Positions 11,917-49,534 of a stretch of DNA of 64,000 bases are shown in pieces (position 1 is the stretch's first letter; every line of letters starts with the position of its first letter). Source of the DNA: Eledone cirrhosa (lineage: Eukaryota); the NCBI GenBank assembly GCA_964016885.1, contig OZ024742.1, positions 89,714,001 through 89,778,000 on the forward strand. The letters run 5' to 3'. The notes under the pieces were generated by a model. It worked only from the letters and a program-made list of their open reading frames with translations, made no database searches and was not told the origin of the DNA. The position numbers were made by a program, and so were the translations under genes.

Positions 11917-14900
11917 TCTATATATATAAATCTGAGGATGTGTGTGTTAAGGTTTGTAACGGATTCCCGTCCACAACTTCCGACGGATTCTATTCAAAGT
12001 CAGGACAATTATTGCTTTTGGTCAGGAAAAGGTCATGAAGCAAAAAGAAATTTAAATCCATCAACAATAAGGGCAAAAATCGAACATGATCATTCCCCCT
12101 CGCTATAATTTAACTGTTTTACTCACTCTCTCTCTCTGTCGCTCTTCACTCCCTAAATGACAACACTGCAGAGAGAGAAACAATGTGTATGATCAAATGG
12201 AGCGTTTCGTATATTCTCTCTCTCTATAATTTAACTGCTTTACTCTCTCTGTCGCTCTTTACTCCCTATAGGACAACACTGCGGTGAAGCATTCCGTATT
12301 GAGCGTTCCGTATTGACATACGGCTTATATGGTGCATTATATAAATCGAAATGTAACCCGTGAAATTTTTCCTAGGCAAAATTATTCGAACAGACATGAC
12401 CTTATTGCCAGAGTGTTCAGACTGAAACTGGCTAAACTCATGGCTTTTATCAAAAAGGGTCAGGTACTTGGGGCTGTAAAATGTGACATGTTCACCGTCG
12501 AATGGCAAAAGCGAGGGCTGCCACATGCTTACATTTTGATTTGGTTAGCTGATAAAATCAAATCAAATGCCATATACAGCTTTATTTCGGCTGAAATCCC
12601 TAACCCTGCAACTGACCAGGAATTACATGATATCAGCAAAGCTAACATTGTCCGTGTGCCTCGGGTCCTAATGAGCATCACACGTGTCTGAAAGAGGGCT
12701 CGTGCAGTAAGGGATACCCAAAAAAATGTGTTGACCAGACTCAGACTGTTGGCGACAGGTACCCCCTGTACAGGCCCGAGACGGCCTGAGAACGATGGCT
12801 TCACCACAACAGTAAAGGCAGGTCAAGTCGACAATAGATGGGTGGTCCCTTACTGCTCGCTTCTCTTGAAGATGTTCAACGCCCACATCAACGTTGAGAT
12901 TTGAAACTCCGCCAAGTCGATAAAATACATATGCAAATATGTAAATAAGGGCTCTGATGCCGCAATGTTCGCATTTCAAGCTGAAAATAGCAGGGATGAG
13001 GTTACAGAATACCTGGCGGGGCGGTACATCAGTAGCAAAGAAGCTTTATGGCGCCTATTTGGTTTATCCCTACACCAACGGCACCCCGCCATCGTACAGC
13101 TTGCGGTACATTTGGAAAATGGGCAAAGGGTGTACTTTACGGACCAAACCGCCGCCAAGTTGGCTGCCGATGCGAAAGAGACCATTCTGACGGGTTTCTT
13201 CAAACTTTGCCAGTTCGATGCATTTTCGCAAACAATTGTGTACCCCCAGGTTCTATCCTACTTTATATGGCCGAAAAACACTTGAGTGCGAAGAAAGTCA
13301 GGTCAGGCTGTTGAAAGACATCCTGGTGTAAAATTTGACAGCTGTCTTGGAAGGGTTTACACTGTGTCCCCAAGTCAGCATGAGTGCTTTCATCTCCGCC
13401 TTCTTCTGCATGAAATTGTAGGCCCACAAAGTTTTCAGGACCTTTGATGAAGAAATATGTGATACGTACCGGGAAGCCTGCTTTAAGCGTGGTCTTTTGG
13501 AAGGTGATTCGCAATGGGATTCCACTTTAGCATAGGGTGCTTTGTTGAAATCAACTAAAAGTCTACGAGAACTCTTTGCCATTTTGCTTCAAAAGTGTGA
13601 ATTGGGTGATCCCAAATCTTTCTGGGTCAAGTACAGAGACTTCATGTCTGAGGACTTCCTGCGCCTGGCTCATCTGCAGTATCCTTCAGTGGAAGTTGGT
13701 TGCAGCGACATTATCTACAACAAGGCACTCATTGATATCGAGGACGCCCTCCTCGACATTGTAGGGAACGAATTGGCGACGTATGGTTTGCTGTCAACCA
13801 TCAGAGAGGACGCTAACACGTTGGCTCCGGATTTGTTGCGAGAAACAGCATATGACATCGATTCTCTTTCCCAATACTTAGAGGAAAATGAGTCTAAACT
13901 TCTGTCGGACCAAAGGTTGGCTTATTTAACTATCATTGACGCGGTTCAAAATGAGACTGGGGGTATTTACTATCTCGATGCTCCTGGGGGTAATGGAAAA
14001 ATCTTGGGAACAAAATTGATTCTCGCTAAGATTCGTTAGGAGAAAAAAATTGCGTTGGCCGTTGCATCATCCTGGATCGCTTCTACTTTGCTGCCGGGAG
14101 GCAGGACAGCACACTCAACCTTAAACTCCCCTTGGATTTAGTAAAAACTGAGACACCAACATACAATATCAGCAAGAGTTCACACGAAGCTCTGGTTCTC
14201 AAAAAATGTTACCTCATTGTTTGGGATGAGTGCAAAATGGCACACAAGGGTGCGCTTGAGGCATTGGACAGGACTCTGAAAGACATTAGGGATTCTACGG
14301 CTCCTATGGGTGGCGTAACCCTTCTGCTATCAGTGGATTTTCGGCAAACGCTGCCTGTCATCCCCAAAGGGACAAGAACTGATGAAGTGCGTGACTGCCT
14401 TAGGTTGACCGTGTTTGGCCCCAGGTGAAGAGTCTGTAGCTGAGCACAAATGTGAGTGCTCATTTGCATGGTGACAACATGTCTGCAGCATTTTCTAACA
14501 TTTTAACATTTGGTGAGGGCAATGTTCCTGCGGATGACAAGGGCGGCATAGCAATCGACTCTCTGTGCAACATTGTGAGCATCCCTTCTGACCTTTGGGA
14601 AGCAGTTTTTCCTAATATCTTTAATAACTTTAAAAACTTCGATTGGCTCAGCGAAAGAGCCATCCTTGCTCCGAAAAATCCCATGGTTAATTTTATTAAC
14701 GAGCAGCTGATTAAGAAGATTCCCGGTAAAGAGCACATCTTCAAATCTATCGACCTGACGTCAGACCCCGTCGATATCGTTAATTATCCGGTTGAGTTAT
14801 TAAATTCCCTTGAGCCCCCAGTGCTCCCACCTCACATTCTGAAGCTTAGGGTTGGCTGTCCCATTATGCTAATAAGGAACATGCGTCCACCAAAGCAGTG

Positions 14901-15513
14901 CAACGGTACTCGCATGGTCGTCAAGTCACTGACGCCTCAATTGGTTGAGGCCACCATTGTAACGAGGTGCGGGAGAGGGGAGAATGTTCTCATTCCAAGG
15001 ATGAACCTTTTCCCCTCGGCGTCAGATATCACGTTCTATTTCCGGCGAATCCAATTCCCGGTGAGACCATGTTTTGCCAAGTCACAAGGGCAAACATTGT
15101 CGGTGGCGGGCATCCATTTGGGAGAACCATGCTTCGCCCATGGCCAAATTTATGTTGCCTATTCTCGCGTAGGGAGCAGGAATGGACATTTTGCTTACAC
15201 TCCTCAAGGGATGACACCCAATATCGTCTACAAATAGGTGCTATAGATGTTGATGCAAGTGTTGGAGGTGTTGGAGCAATGCCGTCTAGAAAACTATTTC
15301 CTGGTAGGGTCACCCTTGCTAAATTCGGTATTGGAAGATTATTAACCCATCATTGATTGTCCAAAATGCTAATTGGTTCGTAACTTTTAATAACCGGTTC
15401 AACTGCTTTATGTACTTAATTGATAAGCTTATTCGCTTTCAAGCAACGTTTACCTGGATGTAACTTTTCATAGAAAATGAACAAACCTGAGCAAGGCCGG
15501 GCTAAACTGCAAC
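11917..15513 (+). mobile_element. Helitron, internally deleted and decayed
   Basis: 5' TCTATATATATAAA start; 3' GC-rich hairpin cctgagcaaggccggg followed by a degenerate CTAG; RepHel inside. Confidence 0.85.
12329..15237 (+). pseudogene. Helitron Rep/PIF1-helicase (RepHel) with many stops and frameshifts
   Basis: VEWQKRGLPHAYILIWL (HUH motif), DNRWVVPY, KYICKYVNKG, GRYISSKEA, LDAPGGNGK (Walker A), IVWDE, DFRQTLPV, ERAILAP, CNGTR, QFPVRPCFA, KSQGQTL, HGQIYVA. Confidence 0.95.
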
Positions 15514-16004
15514 TATATATATATATATGTGTGTGTGTGTAGCTAGAACGAGAGAGAGTGAGAGAGATATTTAATCAACTTAAAAATCCGTATGTTGTAG
15601 CGCCCACAACGGTGTTGGGGAGAACAAAGTTCCTGCTTTTCGAGCCAGTTCATCTCATTAACAATCGTATCACACCGACTATTGATTTGTAATTGGCATC
15701 TGGGTTGCTCCATTATTCCTAATAATTTGTTTCGGGCATCAGTATTTAAAGTAAGGTTGGGCAAAGGTAGAATAAAGGAGAAACTTACTATAATAACGGG
15801 TGGAGGGCGGGACTGTGTCTTGTTTATATTTTTTTTATCCGGTTAGTAAAATAAGTTGGATTACTTTGAATAAATAATGAATGAATATTATATAATTTAT
15901 GTACTAAATTTCGTAACTCTTCATTAAACAGAGATCATTTTATTGCTTATTCCATTTTGCTGTAGAGTTAGGTTCGTTAGTCAGTATGTGTATGTATAAT
16001 AATT

Positions 16005-16181
16005 GTTTCTACTTTAGGCACCATGCCAGCAATTACCCAGTACATTACTAGTACTTTATTTTATCGACCCCGTAAGGATGAAAGGCAAAGTCAACCTCGG
16101 CGGGGTTTGAACTCAGATCGTAAAGGGGCGTAACTATGCTGGAAAACATGGCGTCCGACCCTCTACCGATACTGCCAATCC
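16005..16181 (-). mobile_element. tRNA-derived SINE (Meta-domain-like core)
   Basis: Minus strand: box A TGGCAGTATCGG, box B GAGTTCAAACCC, core gcctttcatccttacggggtcgataaaataaagtac. Confidence 0.85.
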
Positions 16182-16380
16182 GTATAATAATGACAATTAT
16201 TGTGTACAGCGCTCAGGTGCATTATAACTGTTGTTCTTCTTCTTTGATTTTTTATAAAATTAGTATCACATATCAACTACAACTACAACCACCACCACCA
16301 TCACCACCGCTTCAACTACCATATATATAGACAGAGCGGGAAAGAAAAAGAGAGACAGATAGATAGAGTGACAATGTGAC

Positions 16381-16443
<63 letters not shown>

Positions 16444-16499
16444 AATGACAGGAGGCTGGGCTGGTGTAATTCCTTAAAAGGTTTATTATACTATGATCA

Positions 16500-16551
16500 T
16501 TTCAATGACCGGTTTCAGTACGAATCCGGTGATATCATCAGGTAATCGAAA
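16500..16551 (-). ncRNA. Hammerhead-like motif; mutated mirror copy at about 18135-18186 (+)
   Basis: Minus strand: tttcgat tac CTGATGA ... GAAAC CG GTC attgaaa; ACCGGT palindrome; 3 extra nt before the core; weak stem II. Confidence 0.55.
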
Positions 16552-17096
16552 TATTACAAAGGAATATAATAGACAAAATCCATGGGGCTGAAAATATTTT
16601 CAGGGCTTTTGGGATTCACTTTGGATATTCAGACTCGAACATACACTAGGTATCACCTGATACCATTCCTACTCTTCCATCCTGTATATCTATATGTATA
16701 ACATTGCATTCTCCAACCGTGCTATATATTGCCCATTTACTGCACCTTGATCTGTATTTTATTTCTTCTGTATTGTGATTTCTTCTATGTTCTTATATAC
16801 TTCCTTTTTACTCCCTACATCACCACCCTAGGTATGACTGTATTTTGTATTTTACTTATGGTATTACTTATTCATTTATTTACTCCCTTTACTCTCATTA
16901 TATACGTATCCTTGTACTCATTAGCACACGACCCTAGAATATTGCTCTCTGTACCCTTATATCTGTCTATCTTTATTCACTCCCCCTACCCACCCAGGAA
17001 TCTTACTACATATAACCGGACTAACTATAGTCTATTTGCACATTTCATCAGATTTTATCACTTTCAACTTCACATTACAGGTGTGAATAACTAATA

Positions 17097-17262
17097 ATCG
17101 TTTGGTACACGCGATGATCCGACTGATGTGGCGGCTTTCCCGACTGCACACCAGTCGCTCGGGTCGATCAGCCTTCCTTGAGTGCCTAGAAAAATAAATT
17201 TCCCCTTCTTTCGGTAAACGAAAATACTCGGAACGGCTGCTTCGCCCTGGGGCCCTGTCGGA
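17097..17262 (+). ncRNA. Candidate structured RNA, copy 1 (unknown class)
   Basis: Stems atcgt/gcgat, tccgac/gtcgga, ggcg/cgcc, cgactg/cagtcg, cagcc/ggctg, tgagtg/tactcg; compensatory differences relative to copy 2. Confidence 0.6.
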
Positions 17263-17400
17263 CTTGGAACTCGCCTCGACACCGGTTATTGACTGCCAAA
17301 CCGTACCTTTAATTTCTAGGCTTAATCATAACTTTTAATTTTATCTAGCCTCCTTCTACTAGCACTTAACTAAATCCCCCACCAGTGTGAATCACCAGTA

Positions 17401-17572
17401 ATCGTTTGTTATATACGATGTCCGGCGGACGGCGGCGGACTTCCCGCTGGCACACCCGACGCTTATGACAGTTAACATTCCTGGGGTGCGCGGAAAAATA
17501 AATGTCCATTTCTTTCGCTAGACAATAATACCCGGAACGGCTAACACGCCATTGGGCCACGGGCTGGCCGGG
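17401..17572 (+). ncRNA. Candidate structured RNA, copy 2 (unknown class)
   Basis: Stems atcgt/acgat, tccggc/gccggg, ggcg/cgcc, gtta/taac, gggtg/taccc at homologous positions. Confidence 0.6.
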
Positions 17573-18388
17573 GGTACGCTACGTCGCTAAGCATGGGTTT
17601 AATCTTTTCTCTGTATTCTACCCTGAAACTTTATCGTGACTATCTATAATACACTTAAACTTTTTCATAACAGCCTCCTTCTATAAATTCTTTAACTAAA
17701 TCTCACAACTTCAAACTTAAACCTTATTTTTCTAATTTCATCTTAAATGGCATCTTCTAACTCTAAACATAAATTTAACGTTTCTAATTGTTAATCGAAA
17801 TTTCTGTCCATACATTATACCATGCAGACGCCCACTATATATTACTATATATAGTTTTGTTAAGATATATGTTCTTTGATAAAATATTTTTCGCGGCACT
17901 TCTAGCACGCATGACCAGCTTGATTGTGACCTGACTTCAACGCTGGCCTCTGTCTTTGAAGGGATGGTAGTATTACGCTATAAGCCTACGCCCCTTCACC
18001 AAATAGACATATGTAGGCTTAATAATGACCATATGAGGGCGGCCGACTGGGGTAGAAGCTGGTAAATGTTCGGTCGCCTTCATGTCCCTGATTTTCAGCC
18101 TCATGGATCTTGTCTATTATATTCCTCTGTTATATTTCGATTAGGTGATGATGTCACCGGATTTATTCTGAACCCGGTCATTGAAATGATAATAGTATAA
18201 TAAACCTTTTAATGAATTACACGAGTCCAGCCTCTGTTATTTTATAATAAGTAACTCCGTACTCGCAACACCAACTACACAAACGAAGACGGGTGAGTTG
18301 CATTACGTTGAGTGCTCTCCATAATATTACATCGAGGTTGACGATACGGAATGACCAGTTCTATCCAGTGGTGAACCAACAAACCTAA

Positions 18389-18447
<59 letters not shown>

Positions 18448-18486: not shown

Positions 18487-18491
<5 letters not shown>

Positions 18492-18694
18492 AACCAGTAA
18501 GACCCCGACAGCTGAGCTCAAGCCGTTTCGACGGCTAATTCTGGACGGCTAATTCCAGAATTAGCCGTCGAAACGGCTTGAGCTCAGCTGTCGGGGTCTT
18601 ACTGGTTCCTATTACCCACTCTACTACCTCAAGTATTGAGTACTTTGGTGCGTTATGGTCCACCTCACCTGGTTCCTTACCACATTTCCTTCGT

Positions 18695-34560: not shown

Positions 34561-34685
34561 TCGTACTCGCACCACCAACAACTCAAACGAAGACGGGTGA
34601 GTTGCATTACGTCGAGTTCTCTCCCTAATATTACATCAAGGTTGACTATACGGAATGACCAGTTCTACCCAGTGGTGAACCAACA

Positions 34686-34733
<48 letters not shown>

Positions 34734-34795
34734 TAGGAAAAGGTATGATCCTTCGTTATATATATATATAGGTAAGTTATTTATTTTGGAAAGCC

Positions 34796-34843
34796 AGATT
34801 CCTGATGATTTCTAAAGAATGAAACAGTTCTAGTCCTGTAGAA

Positions 34844-38691: not shown

Positions 38692-38734
38692 ATAAATGTA
38701 AAATATATCACTATAGCATCATATTTATTTCATT

Positions 38735-38918
38735 GGATTGGCAGTATCGGCAGAGGGTCGGACGCCATGCTTTGACGCATAGAGTTACGGCCCTTTCCAT
38801 TCTGAGTTCAAAGCCCGCCGAGGTCAACTTTGCCTTTCATCCTTACGGGGTCGATAACATAAAGTACCGGTAATGTAATGGGTACTTGCTGGCCTTGTGC
38901 CAAAGATAGAAACAATTA
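38735..38918 (+). mobile_element. tRNA-derived SINE (also about 46189-46372 and 53601-53784)
   Basis: Box A TGGCAGTATCGG, box B GAGTTCAAAGCC, same core as 16005-16181. Confidence 0.85.
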
Positions 38919-40097
38919 TATATATTTCAAGGATACTAGTTTATAGTATGCTTTCATCAGATAAAATATAATATATGATGTATCAGATAGTGACATGCCC
39001 CCAAAATAGACCTCATACGGTCAAATTAAAATGCGCAGGTGATTTAAAATTTCAAAATTTCTTAGGATGTAAATTAATTGAGAGAGAGATTGCTTTGTAG
39101 AGCGTTCATTATGAACATAACTCTGCTGAAAACTTGTCAACAAAGCATATAACACGTTGTTTATATATATATATATAAGTAATAACACAACAGTTAGTTC
39201 ACCATACCGAGAAAAATGTTTCACCTTAGCGGATCTTCAGCTCGGACTATTCATGGTTAAACGGAACAGGAAGAACAGACGTATGAACGCGCATGCGCAG
39301 AAACGGTCATTACACCCAAGCGATACAAATCCACGGGCGAAAGTCCGGAAAAGATGTTCGAGTTGATTAGAAAATTAGAATGTTTTTGTTATTCAATCCG
39401 GAGCTTTGTAGTTATGCAAGATGTGTTTCCAGACATGTGGACAACGTGAGAATATTCCATTTTTGATATTAGGTTAGTGTTAGTGGGATGAGTGAGTGTG
39501 GAAAAAGGGTTTGGGTGGAGCGGGGAGAGAAGAGTGTGGGGGTCGATGGAGGGAGTGTGGTGTACTGGTGTGTGTGTAGTTTGATGAAGAGGGTGTTAGT
39601 GGGTGTTAGTATACGGGAGGTGGAGAAAGGGTTGAATGCAGGTGTGAGTGGGGGTTAGTGTTGGTAGGGTGTGTAGAGTTGGTGGTGTACGAGGGTGTGT
39701 GGGTACGTGTGCGTGGGGTTGGGGGTGTTAGTGATGTTAGTTGCGTGTGGGGTGGGTGGTGTAAGTGGGTGCGTGTGTTCGTGTGCTTGGGGTCAGGCGG
39801 TGTTAGTGATGTTAGTTGCGGGGTGGTGGGATGGATGTGTGGGGGTGAGGGTTAGTGGTGGTAGTAGGGTGTGTGTTTAGTGTGAGCGCGTGTATATATG
39901 TGCCGGTGGGTGTGTGCGTGTGATAAGGAGGGGGGAGGAGAAGAAGGGAGGGATGTTAGTATGTTAGTTGGGGAAGGGTGGTCGGATGAGAGGCGGAGTG
40001 GAGGTGTTAGTATTGTTATTTGTGGGGTGGGCGGTGAAAAGGAGGGGTGTGTTAGTGGGGGATATATGTGTGTGGGGGGGGGGGGGGGGGGCGAAGG

Positions 40098-41920: not shown

Positions 41921-42044
41921 CGTACTCGCACCACCAACAACTCAAACGAAGACGGGTGAGTTGCATTACGTCGAGTTCTCTCCCTAATATTACATCAAGG
42001 TTGACTATACGGAATGACCAGTTCTACCCAGTGGTGGACCAACA

Positions 42045-42118
<74 letters not shown>

Positions 42119-49376: not shown

Positions 49377-49500
49377 CGTACTCGCACCACCAATAACTCA
49401 AACGAAGACGGGTGAGTTGCATTACGTCGAGTTCTCTCCCTAATATTACATCAAGGTTGACTATACGGAATGACCAGTTCTACCCAGTGGTGAACCAACA

Positions 49501-49534
<34 letters not shown>

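Follow-up and report, generated by a model that had tools for sequence, protein, structure and literature searches.

A window of 64,000 nt from the genome of Eledone cirrhosa (contig OZ024742.1, positions 89,714,001 to 89,778,000 of the forward strand) contains two adjacent units that had been described, in a sequence-only reading, as a tandem pair of diverged structured RNAs within a fold-back element. The locus raises the question of whether such an RNA exists, what kind of element carries it and what it might do for that element, a ribozyme, an IRES-like element and an RT-recruiting signal having been suggested. The existence of the feature is supported by the present analysis, in that an undescribed, predicted structured RNA of the + strand, with no Rfam match, appears to be under selection in a mobile element. 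The multi-junction set of stems drawn for it did not survive, consisting mostly of private mutations of the window copy or of pairings in the wrong register.

Two related units in the window

The two units are related and spaced 304 bp apart, sharing a gapless 125-nt stretch of 72% identity and a 36-nt stretch of 81% identity, and their cores are GC-rich within AT-rich DNA, as had been noted. The motif contained in them measures ~220 nt rather than the ~170 nt first estimated. Copy 1 (17081..17297, + strand, 247 bits) consists of a dispensable 5′ leader and a predicted rod of ~180 nt (about 17112-17292) with a Y-shaped tip; the conserved 50 nt of this tip (17180..17229, + strand) are predicted to form a closing helix and a three-way junction with two 5-bp hairpins, and carry two private changes. 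Copy 2 (17385..17590, + strand, 175 bits) is damaged, with a 14-nt deletion near its 3′ end and several private changes in its tip (17484..17533, + strand).

The host element

The stretch holding the units is a dispersed repeat with 1,852 candidates, of which 40 were scored and are 86-100% identical. Among 30 loci examined, six (L001-L006) share flanks as a local segmental duplication and the other 24 are independent insertions. The window copy (16598..18395, + strand) is a 5′-truncated member of a ~2.1-kb non-autonomous Penelope-like family, for which the full copy L025:448-2822 served as comparison, with its order of pLTR, body and pLTR and its (TA)n end. The pLTRs are direct repeats in this copy (448-736 repeated at 2532-2822) and likewise in L007, L009 and L013. 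Element copies further display the hallmarks of Penelope-like elements (PLEs), namely 5′ truncation, inverted partial pLTRs and insertion at AT-rich or microsatellite sites. The arms of the fold-back are real and lie inverted at 16436-16595 and 18091-18249, the former being a minus-strand pLTR segment (16436..16595) created by 5′-inversion of the window insertion; near 16541 on the minus strand it retains a minimal hammerhead core that is intact. The 24 independent insertions differ from one another in 5′ structure, and the fold-back is therefore specific to the window insertion; as it varies between copies, an essential role for it is not supported. The AC-rich pLTR tail (18250..18395, + strand), which ends before (TA)n, is likely the region in which reverse transcription starts, by analogy with what is described of the anole Poseidon element (PMC11167929).

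The hammerhead reported for the right arm on the + strand was recovered by motif scan at 18140..18200. In this family the pLTR hammerhead is of minimal type I, with a CTGATGA...GAAA core and the palindromic helix III TGATCA, a type described for Penelope-like elements (PMC4209133), and the core has 6,325 exact genomic matches against 0 in the control. The window core reads GTGATGA, found in 2 of the ~150 cores listed compared with 125 for CTGATGA. This C3 to G change likely renders the ribozyme inactive; in the hammerhead of the anole element, the same C3G change is reported to abolish cleavage (PMC11167929). Because of the altered core, the window copy is taken to be a decaying insertion. A scan of the window detected no hammerhead in the 304-bp units, whereas non-LTR retrozymes carry a complete hammerhead in each tandem unit. 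The tip lies upstream of the hammerhead at a median distance of 716 nt (10th-90th percentile 646-971, n=122), and in 70 loci selected by hammerhead and blind to the motif, motif matches were present in 9, most of the others appearing 5′-truncated.

Neither the ORF lists nor tblastn revealed an RT or GIY-YIG endonuclease frame in the element body, the tblastn matches being confined to neighbouring unrelated remnants. Similarly, the 70 loci picked by hammerhead alone, from the 6,325 places, had no RT or endonuclease frame joined to this pLTR. The coding Penelope family of the window (32-50 kb) was considered as an autonomous partner and rejected, since the tail match that it has at 41921 results from a local fusion and 0 of 24 other, independent copies share sequence with the element. 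The host element is placed as an ordinary non-autonomous PLE derivative. One locus, L177, holds two identical 2,077-bp units head-to-tail. Contigs of a second organism cover the 3′ body and pLTR and not the motif of L025, with only a 37-nt piece having 6 mismatches and unlike flanks on L340; these contigs were left out of the evidence.

Just upstream of the pLTR, a second conserved GC-rich hairpin is predicted in the window (18031-18085, + strand) and in 6 of 6 family copies (L025, L062, L228, L264, L269 and L288), with sequences that differ among families and predicted energies of -20 to -30 kcal/mol. Many element copies are 5′-truncated or inverted near this hairpin.

Abundance and history of the motif

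Allowing up to 3 mismatches, a 24-mer from the tip has 2,651 genomic matches compared with 1 in the control. Pattern and DNA searches place the motif across a succession of subfamilies ranging from ~11% to ~3% divergence from their own majority, ordered by divergence and shared deletions. Old families, which were compared over the motif only, are 10-11% from their majority, with one subgroup at 5%. Elements with a single motif are about 9% diverged, followed by the tandem duplication (about 6%) and the window family (4-5%). Later lineages (about 3%) have a decayed unit 2 and a unit 1 shortened by loss of the 5′ leader and of some of the 3′ arm, and in an abundant young family (also about 3%) the leader-less unit was kept and duplicated anew at about 505 bp. 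The motif was therefore duplicated twice independently from ancestors that carried one, and an essential role for the tandem pair is not supported. The second copy decays freely in several lineages; from F-u2 to G-u2, 15 pairs are broken compared with 14 expected. Since other body segments of the young family are tandemly duplicated too, duplication is no sign of function. Between groups, divergence of the whole motif amounts to about 0.6-1.0 of that of the flanks, and intermediates between families are graded. The tree of these sequences is midpoint-rooted and includes chimeric flanks. One old-family copy (L293:2345-2590) has a 5′ arm grown to about five tandem repeats of ~50 nt.

Conservation of the tip

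The 50-nt tip has been kept about as strictly as the element's own hammerhead while the rest of the element was rewritten. Between L025, of the window family, and L228, of the young family, the tip is identical at 49 of 50 positions and the hammerhead at 62 of 65, compared with 30/55 and 32/54 (~55%) for the two rod arms and a noise-level 38-47% for the flanks. The majority sequence of the oldest families agrees with window unit 1 at 45 of 52 tip positions and at 37/66 and 29/53 positions of the arms. A hairpin loop of the window and young families contains AAUAAA. This sequence is not ancestral: the oldest families have AAAUUAA or a close variant in its place, and some second copies have a loop with AUUAAU. 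Old families keep the second tip hairpin in a shifted register. Complementarity of the tip to the rest of its own element is limited to short AT-rich matches, and searches of metagenome and viral contigs with the tip pattern returned 0 and 0 matches.

Predicted fold

Before sequences were grouped, 8 truncated or chimeric rows were left out; in another clustering, 174 of 238 segments fell into clusters of at least 3 members, and 15 of those 17 clusters were used further. Majority sequences, of the old families as well as of most of the 14 groups, are predicted to fold as an imperfect rod of ~180 nt whose end is a three-way junction bearing two hairpins of 5-6 bp. A natural family copy resembling the majority is far more stable than its shuffles on the + strand (z -6.0, with 0 of 200 shuffles as stable) compared with the - strand (z -1.2), in agreement with the strand preference proposed earlier. 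Stability is lower for a young natural copy (z -2.45) and an old decayed copy (z -1.3), and the window units fold weakly alone, at z -1.65 for unit 1 (-1.87 with rod boundaries) and z -0.02 for unit 2 (-0.50 with rod boundaries).

Several tests on the + strand suggest that substitutions have been tolerated where they spare the pairing. Along lineages, 190 substitutions broke 51 pairs compared with 66.3 ± 5.4 expected (p=0.004), and 48 compared with 59.3 in the reverse direction (p=0.012); the minus-strand trend in this test was weak (p=0.09 and 0.055), the private-mutation control was also in slight deficit (443 vs 473, p=0.02), and the youngest decaying copy yielded no signal. Refolding after the real substitutions was better than after random placement in 21 of 22 comparisons on the + strand (mean z -1.37), while on the - strand 17 of 22 were negative (mean z -0.73). 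A 5′ arm pairs better with its cognate 3′ arm than with a swapped one, the residual being -5.9 kcal/mol and the permutation test giving p=0.0002 on the + strand (p=0.026 on the - strand), although the cognate arm was the best of its row in only 2 of 14 cases. Two-sided change was seen in 16 of 41 pairs compared with 8.4 ± 1.8 in shuffled data, for a 41-pair structure derived from the same, related sequences as were tested. Because the families are related, these tests are not independent, and the covariation signal, obtained from families of one genome, is positive in aggregate and modest per pair.

When the structure of an old family was carried in register to 11 younger sequences, breaks fell below the null mean in 11 of 11 and reached p<0.05 in only 2, indicating that the modelled rod architecture persists while its registers slip. 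Following a deletion within the 3′ arm, the rod is predicted to re-form using downstream sequence. Tip pairs are nearly invariant, except for the re-registered second hairpin and one G-C/G-U/A-U series, and since they hardly vary, pairing within the tip is derived mainly from energy models.

The stems drawn in the sequence-only reading were compared with 20 unit-1 and 20 unit-2 copies. The cagcc/ggctg and gagtg/tactc helices are genuine parts of the family fold. The compensatory gggtg/taccc version of the latter is absent from all 20 other unit-2 copies, of which 14 have gagtg/tactc as in unit 1, and the tccggc stem assigned to unit 2 is present in 1 of 20 copies, with GCC(G/A)GC/GCTGGC instead in 9. 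The CACAC loop of unit 1 is confined to the window copy (1 of 20), the loop being CACGC in 15 of 20 copies and CACCC in the older groups. In constrained folds, which are a rough measure, 39 of 40 copies were less stable with tccgac/gtcgga and ggcg/cgcc imposed together than with the long basal helix imposed.

Other pairings were considered and set aside. A pairing between 5′ GUGUG and the CAC(A/G)C loop agrees with the window family, whereas the older groups have CACCC and the young families have no 5′ leader. A pseudoknot between columns 43-48 and 183-188 (tccgac/gtcgga) is perfect only in groups of the window family, gives way to the rod in energy models and is deleted in young families; it is a possible alternative pairing only. 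RNAalifold applied to mixed decayed copies gave weak, inconsistent consensus folds.

Comparison with known RNAs and elements

Rfam 15 gave no match to the motif in the window, L062, L109, L166 or L228, weak matches included; no match in the window reached the gathering threshold, the units had none at E<=10, and L340 gave just two chance-level matches of 14-17 bits. The comparison thereby extended to window, intermediate, young and old versions of the motif, and to Rfam families such as tRNA, 5S, SRP, snRNA, SECIS, known ribozymes and IRESs. ARAGORN called 0 tRNA genes in the window, a search that decayed SINE heads could escape. The sense strand of the full copy has no ATG-initiated ORF longer than 72 aa and none of at least 40 aa starting downstream of the motif, and the young family has no meaningful ORF. 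Likenesses to SRP RNA, telomerase RNA, the 5′ ends of group II introns, the lariat-capping ribozyme and U1A sites were also weighed and dropped, with neither Rfam nor the older families providing support.

A long stem with a branched apex is found in retroviral export elements and in the Y-shaped 3′ translation enhancers of plant viruses, which the motif resembles in predicted topology only, with no sequence or Rfam similarity. SINE central domains and the Alu/SRP domain are structured non-coding modules kept by parasites of another element's RT. The motif differs from modules of this type, including the Helenus type, in lying mid-body in a PLE derivative, with no tRNA call and no Rfam match to tRNA, 5S or SRP. 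Among non-autonomous LTR elements, the tRNA and 5S modules described for Helenus, Ajax and Cassandra (PMC10886601) are a further instance of a small structured RNA kept by such a parasite.

The available portions of reports on PLEs with minimal hammerheads (PMC4209133; PMC8557442; PMC11167929) describe what is seen here as well: pLTRs in direct repeat, a minimal type I hammerhead whose helix III is palindromic, a tail, 5′ truncation with inversion, and insertion at AT-rich or (TA)n sites; the element described here differs in lacking an RT/GIY-YIG frame and in carrying an internal conserved structured module. Non-autonomous PLE derivatives have already been noted (PMC8557442), and animal retrozymes have been argued to be PLE derivatives as well (bioRxiv 10.64898/2026.07.22.740005). 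Like the MRC1-type Chlamys elements, which are non-autonomous PLE derivatives (PMC8557442), and the animal non-LTR retrozymes (bioRxiv 10.64898/2026.07.22.740005), as far as these are described there, the present element is non-coding, derived from pLTR or hammerhead and sometimes arranged head-to-tail; it differs in its length of 2-3 kb, its fast-evolving body, its separate conserved RNA module and its 304-bp units lacking a hammerhead. No internal conserved rod was found in PLE derivatives in the portions of the literature covered, and a consensus without annotation may sit in Repbase or Dfam.

Proposed function

The units are tentatively interpreted, at somewhat less than an even chance, as copies of a conserved module in a non-coding, hammerhead-bearing PLE that would serve as a protein-binding handle aiding reverse transcription by a Penelope enzyme supplied in trans. 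The element would be transcribed into a sense RNA, predicted to fold as a ~180-nt rod that would present its Y-shaped tip, and the tip would bind either the RT-endonuclease itself or a host factor delivering the RNA to it. RNA bound in this way would more often be reverse-transcribed by the Penelope enzyme acting in trans, and one intact copy of the motif would probably be enough. A protein-binding tip that aids copying is suggested because the tip was kept like a ribozyme while the rest was rewritten, and because being copied is the only selective currency of a non-coding element. Of the three functions proposed earlier, RT recruitment comes closest, as a candidate only. Direct binding of the RT is disfavoured by the anole Poseidon element, for which the RNA required in vitro is reported to lie within the first 172 nt of an ORF that begins in the hammerhead, with synthesis starting in the tail (PMC11167929), and an internal handle is thus not required there. 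A stronger version, considered rather doubtful, is that the Y-tipped rod is a new class of RNA through which non-coding derivatives of Penelope recruit its telomerase-like RT in trans, as a functional PLE counterpart of the Alu domain; if true, it would explain the thousands of non-coding copies outnumbering their coding partner.

The conservation and covariation results also fit a role in RNA stability or nuclear export, an unlikely alternative that overlaps in part with the handle reading and in which the rod would use a host factor to protect or export a transcript that is unspliced, cut by the hammerhead and lacking poly(A), with no contact to the RT. PLEs are described as retaining introns through retrotransposition (PMC8557442), and a GGTGAGT resembling a 5′ splice site in the tail, with a TTTCAG resembling a 3′ site where the window copy starts, would suit such a role, but both only resemble consensus sites, and do so less well in the young family. 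Retention of the tip in sequence, not through covariation, and the position of the motif as the sole GC/CpG-rich part of the body would also be in keeping with an internal promoter or enhancer acting at the DNA level, the tip consisting of inverted transcription-factor sites clustered in a CpG-rich patch, with folding a mere by-product. This explanation appears quite improbable given that the arms co-vary, that the + strand is strongly preferred through G-U pairs, and that PLE promoters have been mapped to the pLTR and 5′ intron in the work available (PMC8557442). A similarly low probability is given to a functionless relic, left by a captured RNA or an ancient fold-back inversion, its tip homogenised by template switching between families. 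Inversions of the 5′ end are routine in these elements, and both the free decay of one motif copy in several lineages and the motif-to-flank divergence ratio given above speak for a relic; persistence of the tip in families of every age, oldest and youngest included, despite turnover of the body, the graded intermediates, the strand asymmetry and the covariation speak against it.

The two remaining proposals fare worse. A new self-cleaving or self-ligating ribozyme would account for the conserved nucleotides at the three-way junction, and would be at home in an element that already carries a ribozyme and in an RNA matching no known class. It is nonetheless very unlikely, since full-length copies span one or two intact motifs, peripheral parts are freely lost, and the 5′ ends upstream of the tip are scattered, no end within 140 nt being shared by over 2 of the 234 segments, a survey that cleavage in the tip or 3′ arm would escape. 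Least probable, and hardly to be expected, is an IRES-like or poly(A)-signal element: the AAUAAA loop of the window and young families would suit the latter, but it is replaced in the oldest families and in some second copies, and cleavage there would presumably remove the pLTR needed for copying, while the former is at odds with the absence of a conserved ORF, there being none of sufficient length downstream of the motif and none meaningful in the young family.

The handle reading is of interest in that Penelope RT is the closest relative of telomerase RT, and the motif bears on how non-autonomous derivatives reach it. Through many waves of amplification that rewrote the surrounding 2 kb, the tip stayed as strictly kept as the catalytic hammerhead, and together with its natural variants (single, duplicated, leader-less and re-registered) it presents a small mutable target. 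Should it prove to be a handle for the RT or RNP, PLE-derived non-coding elements would have their first known internal cis element of this type, as far as the literature covered shows.

Other features of the window

Three tandem units of ~7.4 kb, 97-100% identical, occupy about 31400-54300, each with a minus-strand coding Penelope-like element that is frameshifted and in which RT- and GIY-YIG-like frames were recognised by eye; Pfam gave no match for its four frameshifted frames. This family numbers 3,477 candidates, and its pLTR bears a hammerhead-like motif of its own. At 41921-42095, 34562-34735 and 49377-49532, a short piece of the pLTR tail of the non-coding element joins the coding Penelope copy head-to-head at its truncated 5′ end, a fusion absent from 24 other copies of that family. 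The window region as a whole belongs to a large local segmental duplication (G000:C3 89.46-90.35 Mb, L001-L006) of at least 6 copies that are 95-99% identical.

Frameshifted Helitron-like Rep/PIF1-helicase frames were identified by eye from the ORF list at about 12300-15240. Following (TA)n, a near-perfect inverted repeat of ~120 nt (18490-18612) constitutes a small fold-back element, relatives of which flank other loci, such as L062, L109 and L228. An abundant SINE-like repeat, often beside or inside these elements, lies at 16001-16182 and, on the minus strand, at 38730-38915. Two more types of minimal hammerhead-like motif, belonging to other repeat families, are located at 34802, 42183 and 49599 on the + strand and at 39240, 46696 and 54107 on the - strand.
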